Assembly: GCA_050084515.1 (NCBI GenBank)
Contig: CM114271.1
Coordinates: 27,900,001-27,964,000 of the forward strand
Direction of reading: 5' to 3'
DNA: 64,000 bases
Source: Blasia pusilla
Lineage: Eukaryota
Program-made: the position numbers and the translations under genes
Notes under the pieces: generated by a model
What the model was told of the DNA's origin: nothing
What the model saw: the letters and a program-made list of their open reading frames with translations, nothing else
Databases searched by the model: none
Shown here: positions 13,969-36,200 of the stretch, one piece after another
How positions within the stretch are numbered: the stretch's first letter is position 1
How the letters are laid out: every line of letters starts with the position of its first letter

Positions 13969-16900
13969 TCAGTTAGTGTCAAGTGACATTTGGGAATCGA
14001 ATTCAGAGAAATCCTCAAAGTAGGCTTTGAAGTGTTGGTATGCATATCCAACATCATCGACTCCACACATCTCCCTTATGCTGTGCATAGAAAGCTGTGG
14101 TGTTCCAACATCAACTGTTCGTATGCCAGTTCCACTTGCCACGATAGGTCCGATGGTGGATCCACAACCCATATCATTCCGAACCACAAACTCCTGTACA
14201 AAATGGCCACAAGGATTAGAGCATTCAGGTAGACAGTCTCAGATTCATATAGGGATTTCAGCTTAGTCATAAAACTGGACCTGCAGATATTCTCAGGGAT
14301 AATCAAGCATCTTCAAGACTTGAAGTAATTCCAGAGCACTCCTGCTGGACTAATGAGCTTCAGATGGACAGATTTCTCAGGGACTCGAAGAACTAGGCCA
14401 CGAGAGACTCTTATACCAGTGAACAGTGATATTAGGCATCTCTCGGGCCCCTTGGAAGATAACTTCAAGTAAGTTCCAATCCAGTTCTTCAAGAAAGACA
14501 TCCAAGGATTTGACTTGGTTTTACAGGAGAAGAGTTTCAAACAAGCCCGTTCAGAAGTCAACTTACTATTCAGGTGAAGAGAGTTTGCAAGCAGAGATAC
14601 CTGAGTTGGTATGTCATGGCGATTCCCAATTTCTCCAAATATCAGGGCAGTTACAGCATTGGTGGCGTATCTCTGATTAGCATTGTGTTTGATCACTAAG
14701 CCTTTATGCACTTGTGGCTGATGCCTTTCATCATGCTTGTCCTGTATTGAAACAAACAGCAGATTCATCCAATAAATGTGGTCTTCCAAATTGAAGCTTA
14801 TTTATGAGATTAAACATCTCATTGCATAGTTAAATTGACCCGTTTTCATGCATAAAATTATCTCAAGAGGTGTGTTGTTACCATATAATTCGGATGAAGG
14901 GAGTGTGCCATGTCTGCAGACACGAAGAAACTTCGCTGGATTGCTTGCTCAAAAACACTCTGAACACAGAAAACAAAACATAACTTCCAGCTCAATCCAC
15001 ATATTGATTGCCCAAACTTAACTTTTGACACCTCAATGGCATCCAACAGGCAGATTGTGTAATAAATTATGCATTTCTGCAGTGCTCGTGTCAAACAGAA
15101 CCTTCAATTTAGAATCACTTGAAAATATTTATGCAGCAAACTTGAGAGAAGATCGAATATGAAATACCACTACTATGCATAGTATTAAGGAGAATACCAA
15201 GTATTACTGCTTCAACTATGACTATCCACTCACCTTAGAGGTCGAGTCTGCTTCTGTAAAATGCGCAGTAATTCTTTTTAGTGCATCGATAAAGACAGGA
15301 GAGCCAGCACCTTGAGCTGATTTAGATCCTATTTCCTCGTGGTCAAACAACGCAATCATCCTCACCCCAACCTCATTAGTCAGAGCGTCTTCACTTGATG
15401 TCGCATCAATAAGACCCTGCCAAATAAAAGATCCGGATGATCAGTGAAATTCGACATCTGACTGCATATCGTATCTCTAAGCTTTCATCATCTGTACCCT
15501 TGAAAGGTGATTCTACATCCACAGGTGATCTGTCTGATAAAGAACCCAAGCAGCTTCTACTGCAGTCATCACGCAACAGTCAACTATCCAGGTAGTCCAC
15601 ATGGATAAAGCACAATACTCAAGTAACGGGAATATCCCCCACCTTTAGGGCACAGAATGAGCTGCAGAGGTTGTCAAGACGACCAGAGAAAATGAACTCG
15701 TTCAATGCACCACCTATTGCACTTGGTTGGGTGTCAATCACATCCATATCAAAGTTGCAGATATCATCTGGTTGACACTTCAATTCATCTGCCAAAATCT
15801 GCATAAATAGGGGATACAGTTATTGGCCCATCACGTACACAGGACGGAAGGGGATGATGATTCACGTGTACTAAGTTCCAATCAGTAAGAACTTGCATGC
15901 AAAAACTACTTTCTGCTCAGGTGCCCTGGGGTTTCAATCAAGACACAATAATGGCTATAACTGTGTCTAGCACTTGCCTGCAAAAGAAGTGGATGGTGAT
16001 TCTGATTCTTGAGCACCTTGAGATCTGCTGACTTGTCAACAGTCTCACAGGTTGGTTCTGAAGCAGACATAGGCCTACAAATCCTATCCTGTTTTCCATA
16101 CATTTAAGTTAGCTTCCGTCTGCTGTAAATAGATTATATGGATCTTAGGATGTGTGAATAATAGGATGATATTCACACATCCTAAGATCCACAAAACAGT
16201 ATTTTGCAGATGGACCCAATCTCCAAGACATTCCTTCCATCTCATGACAGAAATCTCATCACAGACAACAGACATTCGGTGCTACAATCATGGTACCATA
16301 GTTTAAAATAAAATGCCCAGTCCCTTCACCATGAACAGCAACATATAATGGCACTAATATAACTTTCCAGTTTTCAAGTACAGTTACTCATCAAGGAGTT
16401 TTTTTTCGCTTCCTTGCCATGACACTGTGCTGAAGAGTCATCAAGTACCAACAGCTTTGGCTAATTGGTGAAGCCAGGAACAGTCAAGACAAGATGCTAG
16501 TTCTGGAAATGAAATGGAAACCGACCTTGATTACAGTTGCCAAAACTGGCACAAACTGAGTCTGGTTGTTGAACTTAAAGCCATCAGACACATTTCTGTG
16601 CAAAATGATACACTCGTTAGGTTGGAATGTTCCTATGAATTCATTAAAAATGCCATAAAGTTATGTGCCGGAAAAAGCCCTGTCACCCTGAGAGTTGCAG
16701 TATCATTACAAATAAATCTTCTCATCACACCTGTTCACTATCTATCATTAATACTCAAGTTTTAAAGTGCAGAGACAATATCAAGAAAACACCAAAGCCA
16801 ACAATCAACTACTAAAGAAGTGAGCTCCGTGAATTTACCACCTGTCCAAGTGAATAGCTAGAGTGGGCACTCGGAGAATTGCTCTGGGAATATGAACCAG

Positions 16901-18281
16901 TTCATGTGAAAGTATCTCCTTCCCCTCTTTGATTCGCCTAACAAACACGCGGCCCCCCACTGTCAAATCCCGGTCAAACCACGTGTGCCACAATCCACCT
17001 CCATACAACTGAACTCCGAGTTGCAAGAAGCCACCTTTGGAAGTCTGGACAAAACCTCCTGATTAGTAACGAGAAACCCCACACTCCATCTGAAAAGTTC
17101 TTTTGTTTCAAGCCACTGAGGATATCGAAAAATTCATTGGGCGATTTTTCCACCAGTGACAAGGACTCCTAACCACCTTTCCACAATGAAATCATCTTTC
17201 CGTTACCAGTAGAAAAAAAAACTGTTATAAAAGCAGGTAGAAGTAGGAGACAAGATTTGGTAACATGAATTCTACTCCTTCAGTCCCTGGATCAATCCCT
17301 ATCGACAATAAATCCATTCACTCATTCGTTTTTTTGGACTTACCTACTGATGGGAGACTACATTCCTAAGATGGACGCAAGAAGAAATGATGGTTTGCTG
17401 TCCACAAGTCCAAAGGACCAAATCATCATCATCCAAACAACATATTAAAGCATTAGATCAATTGTGAAATAGCCCAGTACCAAGCAGAAGAAAATCTCAT
17501 GGATTACTCGAAATTTACCTTTGAAACAGGCTTTAACTTGGGACATGGGCTATCAGTATGACAGCCAATAGCAATAAACCCATTTCCTGCCTTGTACCTG
17601 CAACATCATGTCACCTACTCGAAATCAATTGCAGTGCTACTTAACGGGCGTGATTTCTGAGTTTCCCATCCTTCGCATGCTAGAGCAGAAATGCCAACCC
17701 TGAGGCCCAAATTGCAGTGGAGAGCCCCAGGGGAAGCTCTCTTGATTATTGGAGTGCAACAGTCGTACCTCTTCCCAACAGCGAACGCCACAATGGTCGA
17801 TTGATTACGCGTAAAATAGTACTTGCCCCCTGGGCTCAAATCCCATGTCTCCCTCTCGGACAAATGCACGTACCCTGCCTGTTTCAACCTCACCTTGGCC
17901 TCATCTGTGAAACGAATACAGAGAGTAGAATTAGACTTCCAAAGTGCACGTCTCCGGGACATCATTCGGCACCAGCCAACCCCATCGATCCATCGATCAT
18001 CTATTCAAAACTGACAGGAGCTTCTCGCTAACAGAAGTGATGGCAAAAAGGACCCAGACTTAAACCCTAAGACCTCCCCAGCTGAGCGTCAATGGAGTTG
18101 CACTCACAAACATCGCGCACTTACGAACTGCATGGAAAGGAGTGCACGCCCCATTCAGAAACCCCACAAGCTCCTCCGCCACGCTCTCCTTCGCCGCCAT
18201 CGATCCATTCGGAATTCCCTCTCCCTCGCCCGCTTCCACCACCTCGGAATTGAGGATCATCTTGTCGGATTCCACACTCAT
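13969..18281 (-). CDS. Aspartyl aminopeptidase (peptidase M18), ~11 exons
   Basis: Exonic motifs [148 protein letters not shown]. First in-frame ATG taken as 18281; an alternative start is at 18200. Confidence 0.93.
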
Positions 18282-18988: not shown

Positions 18989-20203
18989 ATAGTAGATTGT
19001 CCGTGCATGGATAATTGGAAAATAAATCTCATTCTTTTATTTCAATCAAGGATCTTCTTATACATTACATTTCGCGTGTAATGACCTTCTTTATTTGAAT
19101 ATTCATTGCTTCCAATCGTAATTTGGATAGAACTTCTCTTCCCTACTCTAGATAACGCTACATACAATTAACCATGAGAGAAAATTGGAGTAGGCAACTA
19201 AATTCCAACAATTTGAAGAGTTTGATCTTGATACTTATTAATAGTCATAGCAAAAGTTGGACGAATAGGGAATTGAAATCTACGTAGATCAAATGGCAAA
19301 CTAGAGTTGGATGCAATCAATGGGATACGTGGAATAAAAACTCAATCTCTAATATTCTTCCATGTGATGATTCCAGAATCTATGCAATGTTGCATCAATC
19401 CACAAATCACCAATCTCGTCACGCTTGCTTGTTCTTGTGATCCATTCATGTTTCATAAAAGCATGATTGGTGAACAAATTTTCAAACATAAACGATGTGG
19501 AGGTAGTCCAGAAGGCAAGCATGCGTTCAAATATTTAGTGGGATATATATGAGTCATCCCCTCGTCAGGAATAGAATCAACGTTGAGGTATATATGATCC
19601 TATCAACAATAAAAGAGAATGTTAGGAAAAGAATGATAATAAGACTTTATGAAAGATTAATGAAATCCACTAAAATTAGAAAGAATAATGATAAGTGTAA
19701 AATAATCATTACCTCTCCAGGAAATCGAGACATGATATCTGCGTTTATATCGTCAAGGTCTCTAATTCTCGGTGTTAGAATAGTCGTATCTCTCAAGAAG
19801 TCAATATTATGAAATTGGCTACATGAATTTCCATAGATGGTATTTATAAGATCACGTATATTATTACTTTTAGTAACCATTTCTGATAGTAATCGTATAA
19901 AATCATCTCCAAAAGGAGGGTACAGAGATACACGACCCCCTCCCACCTCCAATAACCAATTAGCGAAATCTTGTTGATCAGCACGCAAATGAGCTTCTTT
20001 CCGTTGTTCTCGCATGTTTGTCATTAACTTCATTAATTTGACATTAAACCATAGAAATGACCACTTAATAGTTGCTTGGATAGTTTGTGGACAATCCCCA
20101 TGACGGACAACATGCAATACTTGACGAAAGTCACCATCAAATATAATGAGTTTGCCTCCAAATGGTACTTGTCGTAATTGAGGAGAGACCATGCCCATAA
20201 TAA
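18989..20203 (-). pseudogene. Helitron PIF1-family helicase, C-terminal part, with an intron and a probable 3' terminus
   Basis: PFGGKLIIFDGDFRQVL, FANWLLEVGGG, ILTPR, SGLPPHRLCLK, VFIPRIPL, RRFQFPIRPTFAMTINK and FSHG*LYVALSRV. A GT-AG intron follows FPGE (~19603-19712). A small palindrome (tccatgcacgga on minus) and a degenerate CTAG end lie near 18990-19012. Confidence 0.85.
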
Positions 20204-21137
20204 AACTAGTAGAAAAGGGGCTATTTTAAACCCAAGTGTTAGTGACTCATGTTACTAAGAGTCATTAAAACTATTAATAATTACTCAACAACCAATCAAG
20301 TGACTTGTTTATTTCTCATACTATCGTGGAGTCACAATTACTGACTAGAGTAAAATAGAGGGAAGAAGTTTTTTTTATCTGCTAATTCATGCTTAATAGC
20401 TCATGAACTACTTCTTTATATTTATGAATAATGATAGGTCCTCTAGAAAGCGCTTAAGAAACAACTATATCTCAAGGGAGAGGGGTAAAAGTTGTGCTAG
20501 TAGGGGTTAGAAAATTGACTAACACTAACTAAGGCAAGAGAGGATACTATAACTAGAGATCTTAAGAAGGAAATATGAGAAAATGAAGTTAACCCTAAGA
20601 CATTAGAAGCCTAAACCTGCATGCTTTGTTCAAGCACGTCGTCATCCAAAGGCGCGCTTTCCCTTTCGTGCACTCACTCTTCATTTTTTCCGAGAGCTTT
20701 GCAGAGGGCTTTATGTGTGAAAGTAGAAGGAGGGTGTGTGTTGTAAGCGTGATTCGAGTGGAAGTAGCTGACATGACTCCATCGGCGCATTTCTGCCTTG
20801 TGAGTTCTTCGTTTTGCTCAATACCTATTCTTTTCTGAAAAATTGTGAGACACTTTATTTTATTTCTGTTGTGTTGAGATTTTTCGCGAGTTGCCGTAGT
20901 GTTTTGAGGCAATGCGTCACCATTTACAGTCCTGAATCTTCCGCATTTGTTCAATATAGTTAACACATCATCCATCTATCCACCCCACCACTCATCGACT
21001 AGCTATCTCCCCTGATCCATACCACTTAATACTTATTCAATTTTTCGCCTTCACAACCGCAGCTAGCACATTCACAACCAGCGGATTCCCATCTTCACTT
21101 CTCCACTATTACTCCAACAACAAACATTGATCAATCT

Positions 21138-21446: not shown

Positions 21447-21644
<198 letters not shown>

Positions 21645-23530: not shown

Positions 23531-23620
<90 letters not shown>
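23531..23620. repeat. (TC)~45 microsatellite
   Basis: Direct reading. Confidence 0.97.
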
Positions 23621-23623
<3 letters not shown>

Positions 23624-25214
23624 GTGTGAGTGTTGACATAAAGTGTTGGTGCAGAGATTCAAGTGTTATAATTGTTGGTGGTTGGTAGAGCTTTGAAAGA
23701 GTCAGAGCATATAATAAGCAGGTATAAAAATCTGGAAGCTACGATTTCCCTGAATGCGGTTAAAAAGGTATGAAATCTGATTGAAATTCATGGGATTTTC
23801 TTGTAGGAACTTATTGGATATCTTAATGGACATGTGCGTCATATAGTGCAATAGAAAAAATCCAAGAGTTATACAAAAACAATCCCTCCTCAATATCAGA
23901 GATCCCTTGTACCAATCCATGAAAAGATCCATAAGTGGATACTTGAGGGAGAGGTGGATGATCTGTATGGTGACTTCTTTGTATACTTAGTTTTGAACTA
24001 CTGTTTTGTTCCTTAGTAAATATTTAGGAATGTAACATCCTTCATGTCTCTGGATAGCATCAGAGTGATGGCGGGTGTTTCGTTCCAACCAATAGTTGAA
24101 AATGACTCAGGGTACTTTTTGTCCGGATTAAGGAGCCTTCCTTTTGAAGTGAAGGTCAAGATCTTTACCATGAGCAGGCCTACTAGTCTTTTGGACCGTA
24201 TCCTTGTCATCCCAGAATTTGCAAGGGCAAACATTTGTTACTTTCGTGCTTACTCTGACCGTTATTGGACCCCAAATAGGCGACAAAGGCGGACTAGGAA
24301 TTGGCTATTCCGCTTAGAAGATCCCCACGTGTATGTGCGATTTGTAGACATTGTTATGTGGAGGGAGGATACAAGAGCACTATTAGCATGGCTAATGCTT
24401 GGGATCACCCGCAAGGTCACTCTTCATATGTGTCATGATGCAGGGGGATTCTCCGCGGGGAGGATCATCCCATTGTTAGGAAGGCACGAGCCATCATTGA
24501 ATATGCGCGTTCTACTGCTAGCCACAGGGTAGAGGTTATTCTTGAGTATTGTAGTATTGGGGAAGTTGTAACCTCGGGGGACTTAGTATGCATTCGCTCA
24601 AGTCGTAGAACAATTTCTAGGAAAGTTTGCATATGTTGCCTAGACATCTGCCATGAGGTTGTAGTATGGCAACGAGTCAGATCCGTAACCTAACTTAAGG
24701 CCCTTCATGTGGCAGACGGATAACATTTGTAATTGTAAACATGAAGACAATAAGAGGATCCATTTTTGCCAATCATTGATTAAGTCACCAATATTTTTCT
24801 TCATTGATGGAATTGGGCTTATTTTGAGGGGGCATGGTGTGTGTACACTCTTGACCTTGGACGATAAAATATGCTATTACGGGGATGTATACAACCAAAT
24901 AATTAATAAGAAATAATGATTTTTGTAGAAACAATTGCTTCTTATGCTACTTAACTTTAACTTGTTCTATGTACAGGTACGAAAGGATCGACTATTGGAA
25001 ATCCGAGTATCGTGAAGGCTATAGGTAACCTCCACATCCACTGACATCCATTTTTTAGCTTTTTTTTTTCCATGCGTGAATCATGGACATTCAAGATCCA
25101 TTGAATTTCTACACCTATTCCTAATCTTATTGTCTTTTGTCTCGAAATGTAGGAGTAACCAATGTACAAGGATGGCGTGCCTGAAATACCAGCCCAAGAA
25201 AACCCCCGAGGTGA

Positions 25215-25828
25215 GCACTTATGCGCCATATAGTGCAATTCAGGTTTTGCAAAAGGAAGCCCACATTTATGCAATCTGTGATGATGGGGAAGACCTGGTT
25301 GTTTGCGACGGGCCTTGTGCTAGACACTTCCACGCAACTGCAGAATCAACGGGGGCTATAGAGAACTCTTGTCCAGGGCTCAACCTCCCACCAAACCACG
25401 AGGGGAGCTGGTTGTGCTAGGATTGTGTGAAGCAAATGGCGAGGTGTGCCAAGTGTGGTCTAGAGGGGAGTTTTGCAGAGAGCGAGGATTCTGGGGTTCG
25501 TGTGAGAAAGTGCCCAGATACCTTTTGTGTGAGGTTTTTTTGCTTTACTTGTTTGCCTACGGGAGTGGAGTCTTGCCCCATGCATTATTGCCTAGAATGC
25601 CATAAGCATGATGAGGATTTGTGGGAGGACATGGTCTATTGTCCTAGATGCCCCACTGCATGGCATTGGACTTGCTTGAAGAAGGCTATGAGCAAGGGTT
25701 ATGCATGCGATCGGATTATATATGACCATGCTGCATGTGGTGAGGATAGGTGGTGGTTCTATTGCCACCAGCACAAAGTTGTTCCCACACTTCAGATTCC
25801 TTTGGGAGATCATATTTCATGGATTTGA
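25215..25828 (+). pseudogene. EDM2/NSD-like multi-PHD finger module carried by the CACTA element (one premature TAG)
   Basis: ORFs 25076..25420 and 25427..25828 share a frame across one TAG: AICDDGEDLVVCDGPCARHFHAT...CPGL...WLC*DCVKQMARCAKCG...CPDTFC...CPMHYCLEC...CPRCPTAWHWTCL...FYCHQHK...PLGDHI, colinear with the EDM2 PHD region. Confidence 0.8.
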
Positions 25829-26344
25829 TTTTCAGGTAGGCAGATTAGAGATTTGTGTCTGAACAGAATTTCGTGGCATTTTGGTGGAGAGTGCAGGGTA
25901 GCCACTTCTGATGTAAAGAGGGTCGAGGCTCTAAACATGCTTACTAGGTAGGTGGTATGACTTTGTATAGAGACTCGTCATTACCTACCCTCTGATTTTG
26001 AGAGTTCCAATCTTTTGAAATTTTGATCGAATGGCCATAATTGCGAAACTTTATAATATCAGGTTTTGTATCAACATTATGCAGTTTTTTTTGTTATGGA
26101 AGAATGAAATGTAATCATGGTGGTTTCTAAAAGACTGTTGTGATTAGGCTCTTGATTAGGACGTGTCTTTTTGCAGGTGGAATTCTGTATTCATTTATCA
26201 TCCATTGCCATATCCAATCATGCAAGTATAGCTTTAGAGCTAGGTAGTCCATCATGGAAAAACATTGGCAACAAAGTACCAAAATTAGAATTGTTGAGCT
26301 TCCCCCACTCCCAAGTGACGGTGTCTCTAAAGTGTTAATGTGTC

Positions 26345-27100
26345 ATGAGACCTTACCCGGATCCCTGCAAAAAGAGAGGTTGGCATCGTATCCCATGCCA
26401 ACCTCTCTTTTTAGCCTGCATCATGGCCTCCCCTGAATTGCCCCATGATGAATGGTGTCGGCTTAAGACAAACTTTGTGAAATTGGGTGGGAGAGAGACT
26501 GATTGTCTCCGTGACGCCACACATGGCATTTCTGGGAATTGGGTAAGAGTTTTGGAGCATTTCAGATGGACCATCCTGAATTCCCAGAGGAATGAACGGG
26601 GTGTTAAATATGTCCACATAGATTGGTTGTCCTTCTCCAAGTAGGATGTAAGATTGCATAACCCTGACGACCATGATCTATTCCAAAGTAAATCAAGCTC
26701 GATGGCTATTCTGAGGGAAAAGAAATTGTATTGGAAGAATGTGAGGGAAGGGAAACCACTCCTAATTGGTCCGCCACCCACTCCACATCCAACTATGTTT
26801 GGTCGGGTGAGGGTAGTATTTGTCCCTGACATTATATCTCAATGGAGGTTGACATGGATGAAGAGAAAAATTCTAGAATGTGGTGGGCATGTGGAAGACA
26901 TGGTGGATAGGAATACCATCCACTTGATTTGCTGATCCTTTTCCAAAGCCCGTAGACATCATGGAAAGACATTGATTCATTTGTGGATCTCATCTCAAGG
27001 TCTGTATGTGCTTCATTACAACTGGGTCAAAGAATCCATTGAATTGGGAAACTTGGTAGAAAGTAGTCCACATGACTTGATTGGAAACAAGCCAGTGAAA
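26345..27100 (+). pseudogene. Tandem BRCT-like domains in the CACTA element
   Basis: Repeat 1: PLFLACIMASPELPHDEWCRLKTNFVKLGG...DATHGI...VKYVHIDWLSFS. Repeat 2: TMFGRVRVVFV...MKRKILECGGHVEDMVDRNTIHLIC...VLHYNWVKESIELG. Both show the BRCT GG, THLI and WxxxS pattern; interrupted by stops. Confidence 0.7.
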
Positions 27101-27639
27101 TAGCCATACCGGATCAACCAAGTCTTTGGAGACATGGAGGAGCTTACAGATGAGTGGCAAACCACAGATGACGAAGAAACAAATTCCACCAGTTTGGATG
27201 GTTGCGAAAGTAGTGCATAGACCATATACTAAGACATGTATTATTTTATTCAATGTGGGTTCCGTCTCATTGATTTTGCCTCAATACCAGGTTGCTCGAA
27301 TATGTCCACATGTAGTGACTACGTTCCAAGCTGGCCAATCAATTGTATAAAGGTGGGGAATATCAACAGCCTCGCGCATTTTTGTTACCACCCTATAAGT
27401 TTATAAACATATTTTTTTATGGTTGATAGTGAAGTTTGGTATCTTTAGGGTTTCATGGATGTCCCACCTAGCATTTTGCCTCCCTACTGGGGGCAAAATG
27501 CTCATCATCATGCACCCATAGGCAATCCTCCACACCGCTTCGGACCTAAAACAAGCAGGTTACCATTCCTTGGTTTTTTTATGTCGTTGCTCACCAGATA
27601 CCGGTTGGCTAATAATGGCATGACCTCTACAGGAAATGT

Positions 27640-28397
27640 AATATGGAGAAAAATGCACATATTGGGGGTGGTGGAGCGGGCTTTCCACCATTCACAGAAT
27701 GGATTCGATTGGCAATCCGAGAGCATTCAGCACTACACCCAAATATGGACCGGGATGTCTATCTTCTGTCCGCTCCACCTCGAATGTCCGTCTTAGCTTA
27801 CAAGAGAATGAAGCCTATGGAAACCGCTTCTATGTGGTAGATCAAAGTGACGATCATTTTGTCACATATGATTTAGGGTTGCTATCTGTATTCGAGCAAA
27901 TGAGCAATCACCAAGACAAAGGATGGATGCAAATGGGATACATAGGAGAGCTAACTGACATATGGAAATTGGACTATGGGAACACATCCAATCCTATCAT
28001 TCTCATGAAAGGGACTTGGGTGCGACCAGATTGGCGTGTGGCTAGGGCTACAATAAAGCGTGATAGTGATGGATTCTTACTAGCAAACTTCAGGCAAATG
28101 CAACCTGAATGGTTTGAACCTTTTGTATTCCCTAGTGAGGTTGAACAGGCTTTCTTCCTAGACGTGGAGGAATCGCTCGGATGGCGAGTAGTGTACCACA
28201 AGCAGGTAAGGAATCGTAGGGTATCAAGTTATACTTTGGAGTTCAGTTTAGATGGCCACGGGGCTTTTGAAGCTCCCAATAGAACGGTTCAACCTGTCAC
28301 AATTGTCGGAAGTCAGTTTGTACCTTTGATGAGGGTAGAAAGATGGGAAGGCAACATTGAGATTGCAGAGGAACTTAATGATGCCATGGGTTCTTAA
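27640..28397 (+). pseudogene. CACTA TnpD C-terminal DUF4216-like domain
   Basis: YGNRFYV...YIGELTDIWKLDYG...ILMKGTWV...IKRDSDGFLLANF...EPFVFPSEVEQAFFLD...GWRVV; frameshift near 27810. Confidence 0.8.
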
Positions 28398-28679
28398 AGA
28401 AATTTTTGTGTGGTGTGTTCTGTCAGTGGGCATGGGTTCATGGGACATGTAGGTTTTTTTTGTTTTTGAAGGTATTTGATGGAAAACGTGAATGAAATGT
28501 GTGACCCTGTTGAGGCTCGTGCGGCTTATGTGAACAGACGCCTTAAGGAATTGGCGGAAGAACTCAAACATAGAGGCGTTGAATTTTAAGCTTTGACATA
28601 TTGAGCACTCAGGTCTGGGCCTTTATGAATGAATCAAAAGCATTGTGCATAATTCATGTTCTTGAAAAACTTATCCTCA

Positions 28680-31600
28680 TGTGTAGGGCGGAGGCTTGTT
28701 CTAAGCAAGTACGTGCCCCACGACCTGCAAAGAGGGAGCCTCTCCATCTTGGACCGAAGCGGAGGAGCTCTCGATTGCTTGGAAAGGTATTGGCAGCGAT
28801 GGAAAAATCTATTGATGACATTGATGCTCGGACTAGAGGTGAAGAATCTCCCACTTGTGATCCAGAGTTTGTTGCAGACTTTGGTGAAGAGGATCAATCA
28901 GGCTCAGATCAGCTTCCGGCTCTTAAGGAGCCGTGTCCATCAACTATTGGGGGAAAGAAGAAGCAGGTAATTTTTTTGATTAATTAGACAGGATGTGTAT
29001 CTACAATTGTGTTTCAAGGTTAGTGGCATTTGAAAGAAATTGTCTCTAATTGTTGGGTTGCATTGCATTGGCAGAAAGGGACAGTTGGGAGGCAAGCTAC
29101 TTGGGCAAGGGATGTTGCACCTGGGCGTGTACCTGAAAGTCGTATTCCTCTCAAACAACAAGTGGATGTACAATATAGTGGAGAGGGATAGGCAAGCATG
29201 TCTCAAGGCGGTAGAGATGGACCCTATGCACAGAACCCCAAGCCAAGTTTGTTATACGGTGGATATTGTCCAACGGGACAAGGGTGGAATAGTATGAATC
29301 TATCGATTTGCAATCTCAAATTTCTCTTTCATTATATATCATAGGATGATGCTGGGAAGGTTGTATATGTGTCTGTACTACACTAACATATATGTGATGT
29401 GTAGGCTCTATGCAGGGTGGATTCTCCAACTACACCGAGGGACCCTATCATGCGGTGCCAAATAGTCAACATCGGTTTGGAAGTAGCCAATACCTTTATG
29501 GACTCAATGATAGCACTCCAGAAATGTATGGACAACCTCAATGGTTGGGGCTAGGATCCACTCAATGAGTGCAAATGACAAAAGCTACATGTAATGGCAA
29601 GTCATATATATATAGAGAAGTATCATCCCTATTTGGAGAATTTTTCCTCATGTTTTCACGAAGTAGTGACCTAACATCGATGCATAGAGTCTGTTTGTAG
29701 GCATAAAGAATTGCAAAGTGGGCAGCAATCTTGACTGAAGATATTCATGTGTGCAGCAAACTATATGACTCTAGGCTTGTGACGGGCAAGCGTATGGACA
29801 ACATACACACCAAACTCGGTGACTGAGATCAGTGTGCAAGGCGAGGGGGTAAAGGTCGGAAAAGTGGGTGTGAACAACTCTGGTTGGATCACCACAACTT
29901 GAGAAGGAAAGAATAGGTGGCATACAGATTTTAGAGCCGAGGTGTTGCGATGGCTTGACATCTCCATTGTGAATTTTTCAGACCAACACTCAGGGGATTG
30001 GAATTCGGTGTTGAGTGATATTTCTACAACATGGAAGTATGTTGGAAACAATGGCAATGGAGTGGCTGTTCCATGTTTGGAGGAATATGCAAAAAAAAAA
30101 AATACTGAAGACGGAGAGATTTAGATTGCGTCTGACATGGAAAGAAGCTGGAGGAAGCAAGAAGGTGGCCCCATCACCTCATGTAGACCCAACCAATGGG
30201 GGAGATTACTTACGCACTTCATGAGCGAGACTACAAAGACAAAGAGTGAGCAGATGTCCAAAGCACGGGCAACGGTGACCAATCCAAACCCGGCAGGAAG
30301 AAAAGGGAATGCACCAATTGCAGAGCGCTTGGTATGAATAATATTGAAGGATCCATCTTTAATTTCTATTACCGCCATGCATATAGTTTGGCAATTGGTG
30401 TTTGGTAGACTAAACTTGGTCGGTGTAACATGTGTTGTAGAGAAAAGAGAAGGGGCAAACCCCTACTAATGCGCAGGCGCATGAGGAGGCACAGAACCAA
30501 AGGAGTTATGGTACAAGTACAATATCAAAGCAAGTATTTGCATTTGGTTGCTTTAGAGTAGAGGTGAATCTAGTGTATTTCTAGTACATACCTGTTGATA
30601 TAGAGTGAGATCCAAGTCTTGTATTTCAGGCGCCAGGAACATCTGAGCTGACAGAGATCTCTGCCCGATTAAAGTTTATGGAGTTGTTTCCCGAGTCTGT
30701 GACTTACATCATTGATCGCATGGATGCATTCTCCAATAGCATGGACGTGCTAGAGGCATAAAGACTGTTGTTGCTAATAAACAAGAGAACTTCACAAAGT
30801 TGATGGAATTGATTTCCATGAGCTTGAGAAGGGACCATGAGGATATAAGGGATTCCAAGGAGAGGTCGGAAAATCCAAGAGTTGTATCCTCTCCTCATGG
30901 AGTTAGTGATCGAGACCCAGCTCCAAGTGGAGCACTTGCCTCTATGCCGTTGAGTGTATCCTCTCCTCATTCAATCACCGGACCACCTTCAAGGGAGAGT
31001 GCACCCTCTCCGGAGCTGGTTACTATTGTTCCTTTGCCTCCAGTTCTTCCACAGGTTGCCAAGGGTGTTCGTACAGTAAGAGGACTAGATACAGATGTTG
31101 GCATTGCACCAATTGGTCCAAAGAAAAAGGGAGGCACAAGAGAGGTTAATGCTACTGTGTTTGCGAGTGACCCTTTGAGTTCAGGTATGTGAGTTTAGAG
31201 TGATGTTGTGCATTTTACTTTGAAGTTGTTGAAAATCATGATCTATTTGAAAGGGCAGTGAGACGTTCTTGTTGATTGTGATTGTAGAGACCACGGATGA
31301 GGCCCCGGCCGTTGTAGGCAAACGCCAAGTGAGGACATCGCGGAGATGCAATTTGGAGGCCACGGTATTTTCAGAGGAGAATGAGGATAGTGTAGGGATG
31401 TTGGGGAGTGGTGGACCCATGGAGTTGGATCAATTGGATCTTCTGCAAAAGCCAATGATAGTGAGAAGAGCGACACTCAGGAAGAGGACCCGGGAGGCTA
31501 CCACGCTGGTGTTGAAATCTGTTGTGCCTCCGTTGCAGCAGTTGATATCACGTGAGAACCCCTCTGTGGTTGTAGGTTATGGCACCTTGCATGATGGTTG

Positions 31601-31787
31601 TTCTATTTTCCATGGATGTGACATTCCAGATGGGCATTCTATTCTCCATTTGAGAGAGGTCTGCAAGAAGAAATATGTATTGCCATTTCCAAATATGACT
31701 GACGATCCACCGTAGATTTATGTTGTAGATGCCATTGATAGTGTAGTGCTATGGCCATCTCATCTTGTTATGCCTTCTCAGAAATAG
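28680..31787 (+). pseudogene. CACTA TnpA-like multi-exon gene, decayed
   Basis: Exon-like blocks with GT/AG borders, e.g. SEQMSKARATVTNPNPAGRKG. Last exon VVVGYGTLHDGCSIFHGCDIPDGHSILHL...LPFPNMTDDPP*...VVLWP resembles the Tnp1/En-Spm C-terminal domain. Confidence 0.6.
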
Positions 31788-32494
31788 GGGCACCTTCACT
31801 TTGTGTGTATAATTTTTGAGTAAACCTTCCCTTTGACATCCCTCTTGAGTGTGGTGATCTCCATATACTTGTAACTTTTGTACTCATAAGTAGAGGAATT
31901 TGATGTTTGTGTTTTAGTTTTGAGTGTTACAATAGAGATGTTTGTGTTTCATGTCTCAATTTTGAGAATATCTGAGGGGGAAGTTTGCAATGAGAAGTAG
32001 ATATTGTGTTCTTCCATTGATGACCATCTTTCACTATAATTCACTAGGCATTCTTCTGACGTAAGAAAATATTCCATTTCAAGGTGTATGGATACATTTT
32101 GTAGCTTTGGACTTATGGCCACAATTGGATGTAAGAAACATTTGCTAGTTGTACCTTTCAATAGATAAGGATTTTTTACTGTGAAAAACTGATCTAATCA
32201 GATGCTACAAAATTGATGGGTGGTACAGGAGTAATGTGCTTGTATGTTTTTACACGATGCTAGTAGCATTAGGACTATACAACAGATATATAATTGCATC
32301 TCCATTGCATGGATGTAAAAGAAGTAGTGATAGGTGTAGGGAGGATAGGTAGGAAGGAGTAATTCATATTCATGGATACAAAATGGACTCAAATGCCAAT
32401 TTCATGTACATATTTCTCCCAGCAATAAAGCAATCTGTTATACATAATGATTGGTATAGTTATTTGGATATTGTCAATGAATAGGATTGTAAAT

Positions 32495-32870
32495 GACATG
32501 GAGAAGTCATTTTAATGACTTAGTCATTCTCTTGTGACGCATAAAGTCATTATTTATTTCTCTGAGTAGTCATAGTTAACGACTCGCCTAGTCATTCTTA
32601 ATGAAGAGTCTAGTCAATCCTTATGACTCTTCCAATCATTCTTTATTACTCCTTTAGTCATTTCTTATGACTTAACCTAGTCATACAAAATGACTATGTA
32701 AAGTCATATTTAGTGACTATGTTGAGTAACAAAAAAGAGACTCAAATAAGACTACCCTCGGTTTGAGTAATAACTTATACGACTAGGAGTAATTTTTATT
32801 ACTAGAGTCTGGTTAAGTACTTACTTAGTCACAAGTCACACATGCCCGGTTTGAGTAACATCTAGTCATT
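32495..32870. repeat. CACTA subterminal repeat array (TAGTCA/TGACTA motifs)
   Basis: Dense agtca/tgact motifs in both orientations; the same motif occurs at 20240-20350. Confidence 0.75.
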
Positions 32871-33050
32871 TTACGCATTTGAGGCAGTGAATCACACTTT
32901 TCAAGATACACTAGTACAAAACCCCCCTTTGGATGACTTATGACTCATAGATGCTTCATCCCATATAATAAGCATTGCAGCTCGAATTAAGCGGGCTCTT
33001 GGACTATTGATTGATAAGCTACAAATGAAACATGTCATTGAAATTAAATT
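32864..33050 (-). pseudogene. Upstream piece of the split Helitron helicase (motif II); 32864-32908 is inverted
   Basis: Minus 33030->32940 reads CSLSINSPRARLIRAAMLIIWDEASMSH. The next residues YAFEAVNHTFQD are on the plus strand at 32872-32907, and the protein resumes as IMGMVSPQL at 20200 (minus). Confidence 0.85.
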
Positions 33051-33224: not shown

Positions 33225-36200
33225 TAAGCTTCGATCAACTATACCATCAATGTTCGGAAGGTAACACGGCGCACAGTTACGCACATGGTCATTCCAAACC
33301 ATATCATCGCGTCCCTCCAATAAGAGAATACTTGATGGCAAAACCTCACGCAGTCTCAAGATGATGCGCTCTGTAGTCACATCCAACGTCGTGGGTGTCG
33401 TCTACTGCAAGAACACATAGTCTCCATGATTAAACCTCCGGATAGTAGGTCAATAACCGCCTCCCCGAATAGTCGCATACCTCAATGTATCCCGATGCTG
33501 CGCAATTGCCAAGTTCTCAAACGCCATGGGCATCACTCTCCGAAACAATTCAGCCCTCTGAGAACATGCTTGCATCCATATATCAGGATCATAAAGGTTC
33601 AACACCTCACCAACATCTCGAAGAATGGCCATAGGTAAATCTGGCTCTCCGCCATACAAAAACAAGTATGGTGAGAAAGACGCGAAGGATGCCTGTGTGC
33701 TGAATGTGTATCCCATCGCCAACCATAGCAACTGGAGGTCCCAATCTCCTAGATGACCTCTATGCAAGCCATACTTGCGCAATCCTCTCTTCATCGTCTG
33801 CACAACCCGCTCCGCTAATCCATCCGCCTTAGGATGATCTCGCGAAGTAGTGCGGTGGTCGATCAGTGCCTGATCACACAAGGCCTGAAACTCCTCGCGG
33901 AACTCTATATCTTGGTTTGTCAACACCTCACCTGGTGCGCCGTAATGACTCAGCACCCAATCTAGGAAGGCATACTCTACTCCCTCACTCGCTTTGTTAG
34001 GCAATGCAACCAACTCTATCCATTTGGAGAAGTGCTCAACCATCACCAACACATAACGACTATGGTGCTCCGTCAAAGGTAAAGGTCTTGCAAAATCCGA
34101 ACTCCATCTATAACCTAAACCCATGATTGAAAGTGGATACAATTGTGGAGTCAAAGCATAGCATGATTCCTAGACTTGATCACACACCATGCATCTGGAA
34201 AAAAATTGTTGAACGCCAGTCTGCATCCCTCGCCACCAATACTGAATCTAGAGCAAGTTGTATGCCTGCTTCACTCCAAAGTGACCTAACTCCTTGTGGG
34301 CATGACGCACCAAACGTGTTCTCTGCAAAGGATGAGGCACTACAGGTTCTCTACCATCCTCCCACACTCGCAACACATGTGTCCCCTCCCACCTGAACCG
34401 TCTGGCTCGCTGTAGGATTCGATCCCGATCTCCAGCATCCACTATGCTTGCGACGCTGCTAGTACGCGGGTACTCTAAGACTACTCCATCTTCATGAATA
34501 TCTCGGCCACATGTTGTCTCCTCACCGGCCTATGGATCTAAGGACTCTCCATCAGACCTCGCCATCGAAGTCTCAACAATCTGGCTCTCCATGGCCAAGA
34601 AGCCCAAATAGGTTGACATGTGCCATCTTGGCTCCAACTCCTCATCACTCTCTCCATGCCATCGAGCTCCAGTCCCATCTCGTTGACTCGAGCATGGGTT
34701 ACGGCTCAAACCATCTGCATCTTGGTTGAGCATCCCAAGTCTATGTACCACTTGGAAGTCATACCCCTGCAACAAAAGAGCCCACCTCGCAAGCTTCCTT
34801 GTAAGCTTGTCGGACTCCATCAACCACTTAAGTGGTTGATGATCAATAATGATGGTAAAAGGATGCCTGAATGGATAACATCTGAAATGTGCGACATCCC
34901 ACACTACAGCCACGCACTGACCCTCATACTGCAATTGTGAATTGAATGGGTAATGAGCTAAGGCGCCCATCATCCGACTGCCATCCTGGTCTGTAGGACA
35001 TTGACTCCTCCCAATAATCCAGGAAAAACCCCATCAGATATAACACTCCTCCACCAACCAAGATGTCGTAGGACTCTGCATCAATCACTATCGTCTTGGC
35101 TCGCACCATGGACTCATCTGTAGGATGTCCCGGGAAAATCCTCACCACGATCTTATGTCCGGTGATTAACTGTGTGGTACTTGCTCCACCCAAGGATGTA
35201 TGTATCTGGAATGGACAACGCTCCATATCGACTCTCCAATCCTCTCATTGACGCTTTCCCCAAGCCCAATCCTCTCAATGACGCTTTTCCCAAGATTAGA
35301 GGTTGCGCTCTTGAATCCAACAAGATGCGTTGCGGACTAAAATTAAGCTCTACCTTTGAGAATCACCACCTGGAAGACCTCTCCCTGATTATCGAGAAAC
35401 ACAACACCATGGCAGGCCATGGCACGCTCTATCATGGGTCTAGCGGGCATCTTTGCCATCCTAGCAACTGCAACCTGCCATGAATCTAACGTGGACGGCC
35501 GGAGCATCTGCTCCAAAGGCAGGTCCATCACCTCCTCCGCAATCACCTTTGAACGTGATGCAAGAACTCCAACTCCACGCTCACATAGCGTAGCGGGCCG
35601 CCGGAACACCTCGACGGACGTACCTCCCAATACCATAACATCGGAAGCAGAAAATACCGGAGCATGGTACACCATCGTGGCCACCCCCAACATCGTACTC
35701 GACATTGCTCCTCTTGAGCATCAGCAATAGGATTCGTCGCACTAGCTTCTCCCATCGTCCTTGGTGCCTTCATACCAACAACATCACCAACTCTCCAAGA
35801 ACTTTGATCAGGACCCATTGATGGGGTCCTCACTGAGGAAGCCTAGTCTGTTTCGTGGCTTCCCCTCATTGTGGATCCAACTCTGCGGCTGCTCTATGCG
35901 TAACAATATGGCGGCCTCCATTTGGGCAACCCCGCACATCCAACCAAGATCCTCCATATCTATGGAGGCTCCATAAGACATCAATGCCACGGATCCGGCA
36001 TCGGGTTATCTCAATACCATAGCGGCAATCTGCTGCTGTAGCTGATGTATCTGAGCAGCCATCCCAGCCTCACGCCCAGCGTCTCCCTCAATGCGTCTGG
36101 GCGGTGGGACTCTACCTCCTCCACGTGCAACTCCACCACCCCCTTGGACAAATCCAACTCCTCCTCCCCCAACGGGACCACTGATGCACGACTTCTAGGC

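Follow-up and report, generated by a model that had tools for sequence, protein, structure and literature searches.

EDM2 of Arabidopsis thaliana is a protein of 1297 amino acids, which combines an N-terminal RFD-like domain (the Pfam DNMT1-RFD domain of EDM2-like proteins), a composite module of three PHD fingers and an extended C-terminal region. Binding to H3K9me2-containing peptides is a property of the PHD module as such, and the original prediction of an EDM2-like module within a CACTA transposon had drawn on it. The binding of EDM2 to H3K9me2-marked chromatin, the suppression of proximal polyadenylation in heterochromatic introns and the formation of transcripts that run through such introns have been described (PMC7529245). 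In the present study, we analysed a stretch of 64,000 nucleotides from Blasia pusilla, referred to as the window, which contains an ORF coding for a comparable module. All three NSD-type Pfam finger models (PF23011, PF22908 and PF23004) register in EDM2, whereas the window copy gives scores for the first and the third alone, both below the cut-off, and the module stands alone in an ORF of 218 codons. With NSD1, NSD2 and NSD3, the window module has in common a three-finger alignment to PHD1-PHD3 and a superposition on PHD5-C5HCH, but the identity is ~20% and the PWWP and SET domains of the NSD proteins are missing here.

Several proteins carried by transposable elements can be compared with what we propose for this locus, as they are element-borne proteins dealing with host chromatin. 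VANC proteins of VANDAL/Hiun MULEs have an anti-silencing activity and TET/JBP genes are present in fungal DNA transposons (PMC5735166, PMC10398659, PMC12730594), and the transposases of Rehavkus elements contain a PHD finger (PMC6446971). However, VANC binds DNA and has no relationship to PHD fingers, and the Rehavkus PHD finger is part of the transposase, whereas the PHD module in the window is a separate ORF and a homologue of a host heterochromatin reader, on what is probably a CACTA-type element. CACTA elements that carry gene fragments offer a further parallel, since in these, likewise, host-derived coding sequence is found in a non-autonomous CACTA-type repeat. Host fragments captured by CACTA elements are usually partial and young; unlike these, the window ORF spans the entire coding unit, and the family to which it belongs is old, diverged and monophyletic. 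Among the articles listed in full-text literature searches, none was found to describe a CACTA- or transposon-borne EDM2-like PHD gene.

The PHD module is encoded in a single frame on the plus strand, which runs from an ATG at position 25172 to a TGA at 25826-25828 and for which no intron is necessary; the sole good splice donor nearby (CAG/GTAGG, ~25833) is located 3' of the ORF stop. The original prediction had described an intronless Cys/His array, and indeed all the motifs it quoted are present in one frame and in the listed order, with a single in-frame stop (TAG) at a position where homologues carry N or P (Table 1). The start assigned at the time, 25215, lies 43 nt inside the ORF, and a second lesion, the loss of the first zinc ligand, had not been mentioned. 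This ligand is a Cys residue in 5/5 members of a family of short proteins described below and in 123 of the 124 EDM2-likes, and a Tyr residue in the window copy. The window copy retains 26 of the 27 conserved Cys/His columns and its zinc-ligand set is thus incomplete; all zinc-binding Cys and His residues are present in the intact family members P0002 and P0004. The lesions are of the G-to-A / C-to-T type. With a premature stop and a lost zinc ligand, the window ORF is a dead copy, that is, a pseudogene.

Table 1. Features of the window, with positions counted from its first nucleotide.
Feature	Position	Strand	Basis or remark
Gamma-tubulin-complex (GCP) gene fragment, left edge of repeat	23855..24013	+	PF17681 GCP_N_terminal, E 3.1e-5, below cut-off
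Multi-copy repeat unit (~9 kb) containing the ORF	23979..32861	+	Read depth; bounds approximate, 329-nt bins
Stand-alone triple-PHD ORF, EDM2/NSD type, pseudogenised	25172..25828	+	218 codons + TGA; homology
TAT = Tyr replacing the first zinc-binding Cys	25268..25270	+	Cys in relatives
In-frame TAG, codon 83	25418..25420	+	Separates the final two Cys of finger 1
Short palindromic insert of higher copy number, MITE-like	26340..26450		Between PHD ORF and transposase remnant
DUF4216-like ORF (C-terminal part of CACTA TnpD-type transposase)	27642..28394	+	ESM-Atlas look-alikes
Transposase_24 fragment (Ptta/En/Spm, TnpA-like), sub-threshold	30125..30334	+	PF03004, E 1.7e-4
Subterminal-repeat region, candidate right terminus	32500..32890	+	...CAGTG at 32885-32889; depth falls

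In a BLASTP comparison with Arabidopsis thaliana EDM2 (P0156), the window protein was aligned to residues 226-432 with an E value of 1e-14 and 56/210 identical positions (27%), and the alignment is colinear through all three fingers to the closing DH motif. A profile was constructed from P0002, P0003 and the two halves of the window copy and searched against 1.84 billion representatives, which yielded 336 matches with E values of 1e-3 or lower; of these, 170 were at or below 1e-10 and 8 at or below 1e-30. The ranking is headed by small proteins, followed by proteins of liverworts (Calypogeia, Riccia, Marchantia) and then by many proteins of 1200-1400 amino acids. In these EDM2-likes, profile positions ~35-220 are aligned to residues ~220-440 with E values of 1e-18 to 1e-22; one matched cluster includes Arabidopsis EDM2 and others are labelled 'ENHANCED DOWNY MILDEW 2-like'. 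Among solved structures, the profile matched NSD2 (residues 651-794, E 4e-8) and NSD3 (residues 19-149, E 1e-7) across three fingers. The likeness to the composite PHD region of EDM2, which the original prediction had proposed to check against EDM2 and NSD proteins, is therefore confirmed by both comparisons.

In the window copy, the Pfam scores fall short of the cut-off of 27, at 14.8 bits for PHD-1st_NSD and 15.3 bits for PHDvar_NSD, and Pfam did not detect PF22908. Both NSD-type models that score in the window copy match P0002, P0003 and P0004 at the corresponding two positions, and the gathering cut-off is passed by P0004 for PF23011 (27.7) and by P0009 for PF23004 (31.2) and PF22908 (28.3). 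When the window ORF was used as a single sequence, a search of the PDB gave weak matches alone (E 0.03-0.9), and a word search for longer relatives of the PHD ORF found none among 88 candidates. An AlphaFold (AF2) model based on 21 sequences had a mean pLDDT of 79.9 and a pTM of 0.77. Using this model, Foldseek returned exclusively H3-binding tandem PHD modules, including the PZP modules of JADE1 and BRPF1 (E 3e-4 to 1e-3) and the PHD5-C5HCH module of NSD proteins (probability 1.0, target TM 0.53-0.60). As judged from these sequence comparisons, the window ORF is homologous to the composite PHD region of EDM2, far beyond chance. Its product is not an EDM2 protein: the ORF has 218 codons with a start and stop of its own, it falls into a separate clade, and no match to the RFD domain is found nearby. 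We detected neither the RFD domain nor any other part of EDM2 in 33 ORFs of at least 70 amino acids on both strands between 14.3 and 34.2 kb, or among 97 plus-strand ORFs of at least 30 amino acids between 20.8 and 33.2 kb.

Two short relatives of the window ORF were obtained in word-seeded searches: P0002, a protein of 220 amino acids with 55% identity (99% query cover, E 2e-77), and P0003, which has 230 amino acids and is 45% identical. Of 151 classified hits, 17 are nearer to such short proteins (~160-250 amino acids) than to EDM2-likes. We constructed a tree of 132 PHD regions, from which extra members of represented clusters and hits falling short of profile positions 46-200 were excluded. 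In this tree, the window copy and seven short proteins form one clade with a local support of 1.0 and a stem of 1.6 substitutions per site, which is separate from all 124 EDM2-likes, bryophyte and seed-plant proteins alike. The short family starts with 'MA...', followed by a basic stretch, and ends with 'DHISW', with the stop codon at once or soon after; P0002 begins with 'MA' and finishes with 'DHISW' just as the window ORF does. The middle finger contains a Cys residue in 5/5 members and a loop that is ~20 residues shorter than in EDM2-likes, whereas EDM2 has a His residue together with the longer loop, and His is found in 120 of the 124 EDM2-likes.

The intact form of the short family comprises ~220 amino acids and consists of a short basic N-terminus and the three-finger PHD module alone; an effector domain is absent. 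A comparison of five members that are 40-55% identical showed that 22 of 30 columns with a Cys/His majority are invariant versus 25 of the 133 others. Such conservation of the ligand columns at this level of identity indicates that selection has acted in the past to maintain a zinc-binding protein, as opposed to the free decay of a captured fragment. Three of the 17 representatives (P0002, P0004 and P0005) are intact over their full length and carry all ligands. The others are cut, frameshifted or mutated, and one of them, P0015, shares the Cys-to-Tyr change of the window copy. Since only these three are intact and the rest have decayed, the short family turns over in the way repeats do. Searching metagenome contigs with P0003 and the C-terminal half of the window copy did not reveal a relative. 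Genes of wheat and Aegilops annotated as 'EDM2-like' (P0017, P0174-P0182) code for 259-339 amino acids and consist nearly of the PHD module alone; according to their position in a different clade, they represent a second, independent stand-alone form.

On the plus strand, the PHD ORF is followed by a DUF4216-like ORF, a Transposase_24-like fragment and then subterminal repeats (Table 1). For the DUF4216-like ORF, PF13952 is assigned to 28 of the 30 nearest ESM-Atlas clusters, with a top score of 0.96; Pfam gave no match for this ORF even at E 10, and a word search for longer relatives found none among 562 candidates. The match to PF03004 has 22.2 bits versus a cut-off of 28.7 and covers profile positions 2-50 of 138. 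In the candidate right terminus, five of the eight matches of TAGTCATT in the window are located between positions 32521 and 32870, a total of eight being reached by 0/100 shuffles. Furthermore, AGTCAT/ATGACT occurs 58 times in the window, of which 15 are within 32500-32999, and a dense cluster of these is seen on the right side only, ending close to the CAGTG at 32885-32889. Neither subterminal repeats nor a terminus were found at the left side of the repeat. A search around the ORF did not reveal CACTA/CACTG inverted repeats accompanied by a target duplication of 3 bp, and no counterpart of the 16-nt word at the right end was detected when up to 3 mismatches were allowed. The module had been placed 'inside the CACTA TIRs', which could not be confirmed, as no flanking TIR pair was found and a terminus-like region was seen on the right side only. 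Likewise, neither the Tnp2 DDE domain (PF02992) nor DUF4218 (PF13960) was detected among the 97 plus-strand ORFs mentioned above. When the standard layout of CACTA elements is used for comparison, the order of these parts fits a CACTA element from which the catalytic transposase part and the 5' end are missing. The assignment to a CACTA transposon is thus retained in part: the ORF shares its strand with the CACTA-type coding remnants of a repeat that occurs in many copies, while TIRs and a DDE transposase were not found.

The left edge of the repeat contains a piece of a gamma-tubulin-complex gene. Position 23959 within it is a C in every RNA and DNA read, which indicates that the reads originate from another copy, perhaps the parent gene, and the presence of this fragment shows that the repeat does pick up host DNA. 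For the ORF at 24020-24529, upstream of the PHD ORF, the ESM Atlas gave unnamed clusters and low-scoring F-box rows, which were uninformative. A BRCT-like appearance of the region 26645-27100, noted by eye, was rejected as Pfam support is absent.

The copy number of the repeat was assessed from genomic reads with the same species label (run X11, ~1% read, likeness of at least 90%, summed depths). The depth is 7 in the left flank (23650-23978) and 16-24 at 23979-25294, so that the left 1.3 kb of the repeat have about half the depth of the rest. It increases to ~42 at 25295-25623, ~40 at 25624-25952 and ~36 at 25953-26281, is 31-35 at 26611-27597 and ~41-62 (mostly 44-55) at 27598-31874, and falls to 22-31 at 31875-32861 and to 9.5 beyond, in the right flank. 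A depth of 93 was observed in the bin 26282-26610, which contains a small palindromic insert at about twice the surrounding depth; an 'opposite strands' joint at 26361/26414 is seen in 205 reads, and 259 loose ends fall at 26446. This insert has the appearance of a nested repeat of the MITE or hairpin type. Based on read depth, the repeat is probably present in tens of copies or more. The original prediction had considered that the module could be present in this copy only; instead, the ORF has a depth of ~42x compared to ~7-10x in the flanks, and at least 17 diverged clusters exist elsewhere. Neither blastn nor tblastn detected the ORF or the repeat a second time within the 64-kb window. The depth over the PHD ORF matches that over the transposase remnants, which does not strictly prove that the two are linked in the other copies.

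Most of the reads differ clearly from the window: 2976 of 3848 are 90-95% alike and 132 are at least 99% alike. At many positions, all 10-33 reads disagree with the window letter, indicating that the window locus itself contributes little to the depth. Compared to the window copy, the reads contain 277 C>T and 288 G>A differences, the classes to which the lesions of the window copy belong, and ~140 each of A>G and T>C. A bias towards C>T and G>A is known to result from the decay of methylated repeats.

Expression was judged from the raw reads of three stranded RNA runs. RNA reads were found over 24966-26281, at a depth of 0.1-1.7, and on the GCP fragment, and nowhere else in the repeat; specifically, none of the three runs had reads over 26282-32532. 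In all reads on the ORF region, the first mate is on the minus strand, which means that the RNA has sense orientation, assuming the usual library type. The reads are 90-95% alike to the window and break off at 25253, 25348 and 25781. This divergence and these breaks point to a diverged paralogue as the source, not the window locus. When the letters of the paralogue 5' of 25253 were read by hand, they were found to remain homologous to the ORF up to a stop codon, which stands where the family has a conserved Gln codon, so that the transcribed paralogue looks broken, too. The RNA-type letters were also present in genomic reads, namely in 7/27 at 25307 and in 3/30 at 25327, and the RNA-type paralogue therefore seems to be repeated as well. 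Among the reads covering the window ORF, we saw no intact expressed copy in Blasia pusilla.

The surroundings of the repeat contain both host gene and repeat sequences. Exons of a host gene of the M18 aspartyl-aminopeptidase type are located on the minus strand at 14316-18004 (Pfam Peptidase_M18, E 1e-10 and 4e-12, profile positions 327-379 and 11-64), and a PIF1-like helicase fragment, which we take to be a probable Helitron remnant, is found on the same strand at 19650-20225 (PF05970, E 6e-21). Two perfect dinucleotide arrays, (AG)95 at 21451-21641 and (TC)45 at 23531-23620, are ~2 kb apart and mutually complementary. On the other side, the segment 33191-33500 has a DNA depth of 188 and a clear RNA depth, and an integrase ORF of the Ty3/gypsy type (rve, E 5e-9) lies on the minus strand at 33453-34169. 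Further to the right are nested inverted duplications, which are 80-90% alike (34.9-38.3 versus 42.7-47.1 kb and 45.5-50 versus 60-64 kb).

Taking these results together, we propose, with a probability only slightly above one half (roughly 0.55), that ORF 25172-25828 is a decayed copy of an accessory reader gene carried by a CACTA-type (En/Spm) transposon, whose family would have multiplied in the Blasia pusilla genome. The decay of the window copy could also be explained by passive transduplication ('Pack-CACTA'), in which a piece of an EDM2-like host gene was captured once, never had a function and decayed neutrally in all copies. Such a history would account for the stop and the lost ligand in the window copy, for the stop in the transcribed paralogue and for the merely three intact sequences among the 17 short-family representatives, and the GCP gene fragment shows that host sequence is present in the same repeat. 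It accords poorly with the long and fully supported branch that sets the short family apart from all 124 EDM2-likes, with the retention of its own start, stop and family-specific changes such as the middle-finger Cys (5/5), and with the ligand columns, which at 40-55% identity are far better kept than the others. An intact, whole ORF across such divergence is not expected of a neutrally decaying fragment, and we regard passive capture as unlikely.

One might alternatively speculate that the short proteins are a host family of small, PHD-only EDM2-likes and that a pseudogene of this family came to lie beside CACTA debris in the window by chance or as part of a segmental repeat. Relatives of wheat do have PHD-only EDM2-likes of 259-339 amino acids that are annotated as ordinary genes (P0017 cluster), but these grass proteins belong to a different clade. 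The presence of RNA on the ORF and its absence over 26282-32532, the failure to find TIRs and the step in depth from ~20-24 to ~42 near the ORF start would also be in line with a host family. On the other hand, the many-copy depth of the transposase remnants extends over the ORF, and the RNA-type variants at 25307 and 25327 appear to be multi-copy as well, which makes this explanation rather improbable in our view. That the ORF belongs as an exon to some larger gene as yet unrecognised, such as an orthologue of EDM2, might be considered because the module is found inside EDM2-like proteins of 700-1400 amino acids. Yet members of the short family share their start and stop, there is no GT donor ahead of the TGA, the RFD domain and other EDM2 parts are absent from the scanned ORFs and no longer relatives were found, so that we give this idea hardly any credence.

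Returning to the accessory reader gene as the preferred explanation, we hypothesize that the intact protein binds to histone H3 tails, as the PHD modules of EDM2 and NSD proteins do. Due to the absence of an effector part, it could act most simply by occupancy or competition, or alternatively by tethering. In the former case, it would be a stand-alone occupant of, or competitor at, marked chromatin, presumably where H3K9me2-type heterochromatin covers silenced copies of the element itself. As a result, long transcripts of the element would be completed, similar to what EDM2 does for host genes. In the latter case, the protein might serve as a chromatin-tethering subunit of the transposition complex, linking TnpA/TnpD-type proteins to chromatin. 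The window copy is capable of neither role, since it has a stop, has lost a zinc ligand and is part of an element with no detectable DDE domain or left end. A real anti-silencing or targeting role seems quite improbable at present. Similarly improbable, as we see it, is the broader idea that a CACTA lineage has long carried its own EDM2/NSD-type PHD reader for use within silenced chromatin, where the reader may act as a competitor or a mimic of the EDM2 pathway of the host, so that long transcripts of the element pass through H3K9-methylated DNA, or may instead tether the transposition complex to marked nucleosomes.

To our knowledge, few transposon-encoded proteins deal directly with host chromatin marks. 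If the broader idea is true, it would reveal a novel way for mobile DNA to cope with silencing, based on its own version of the reader with which plants bring transcripts through heterochromatin, and it would provide a DNA-transposon counterpart to the chromodomain of chromoviruses and to VANC anti-silencing. While the window copy itself is dead, its value lies in the family that it indicates, intact members of which exist elsewhere. With ~220 amino acids, these may serve as a minimal EDM2-type PHD module for binding and structural work.
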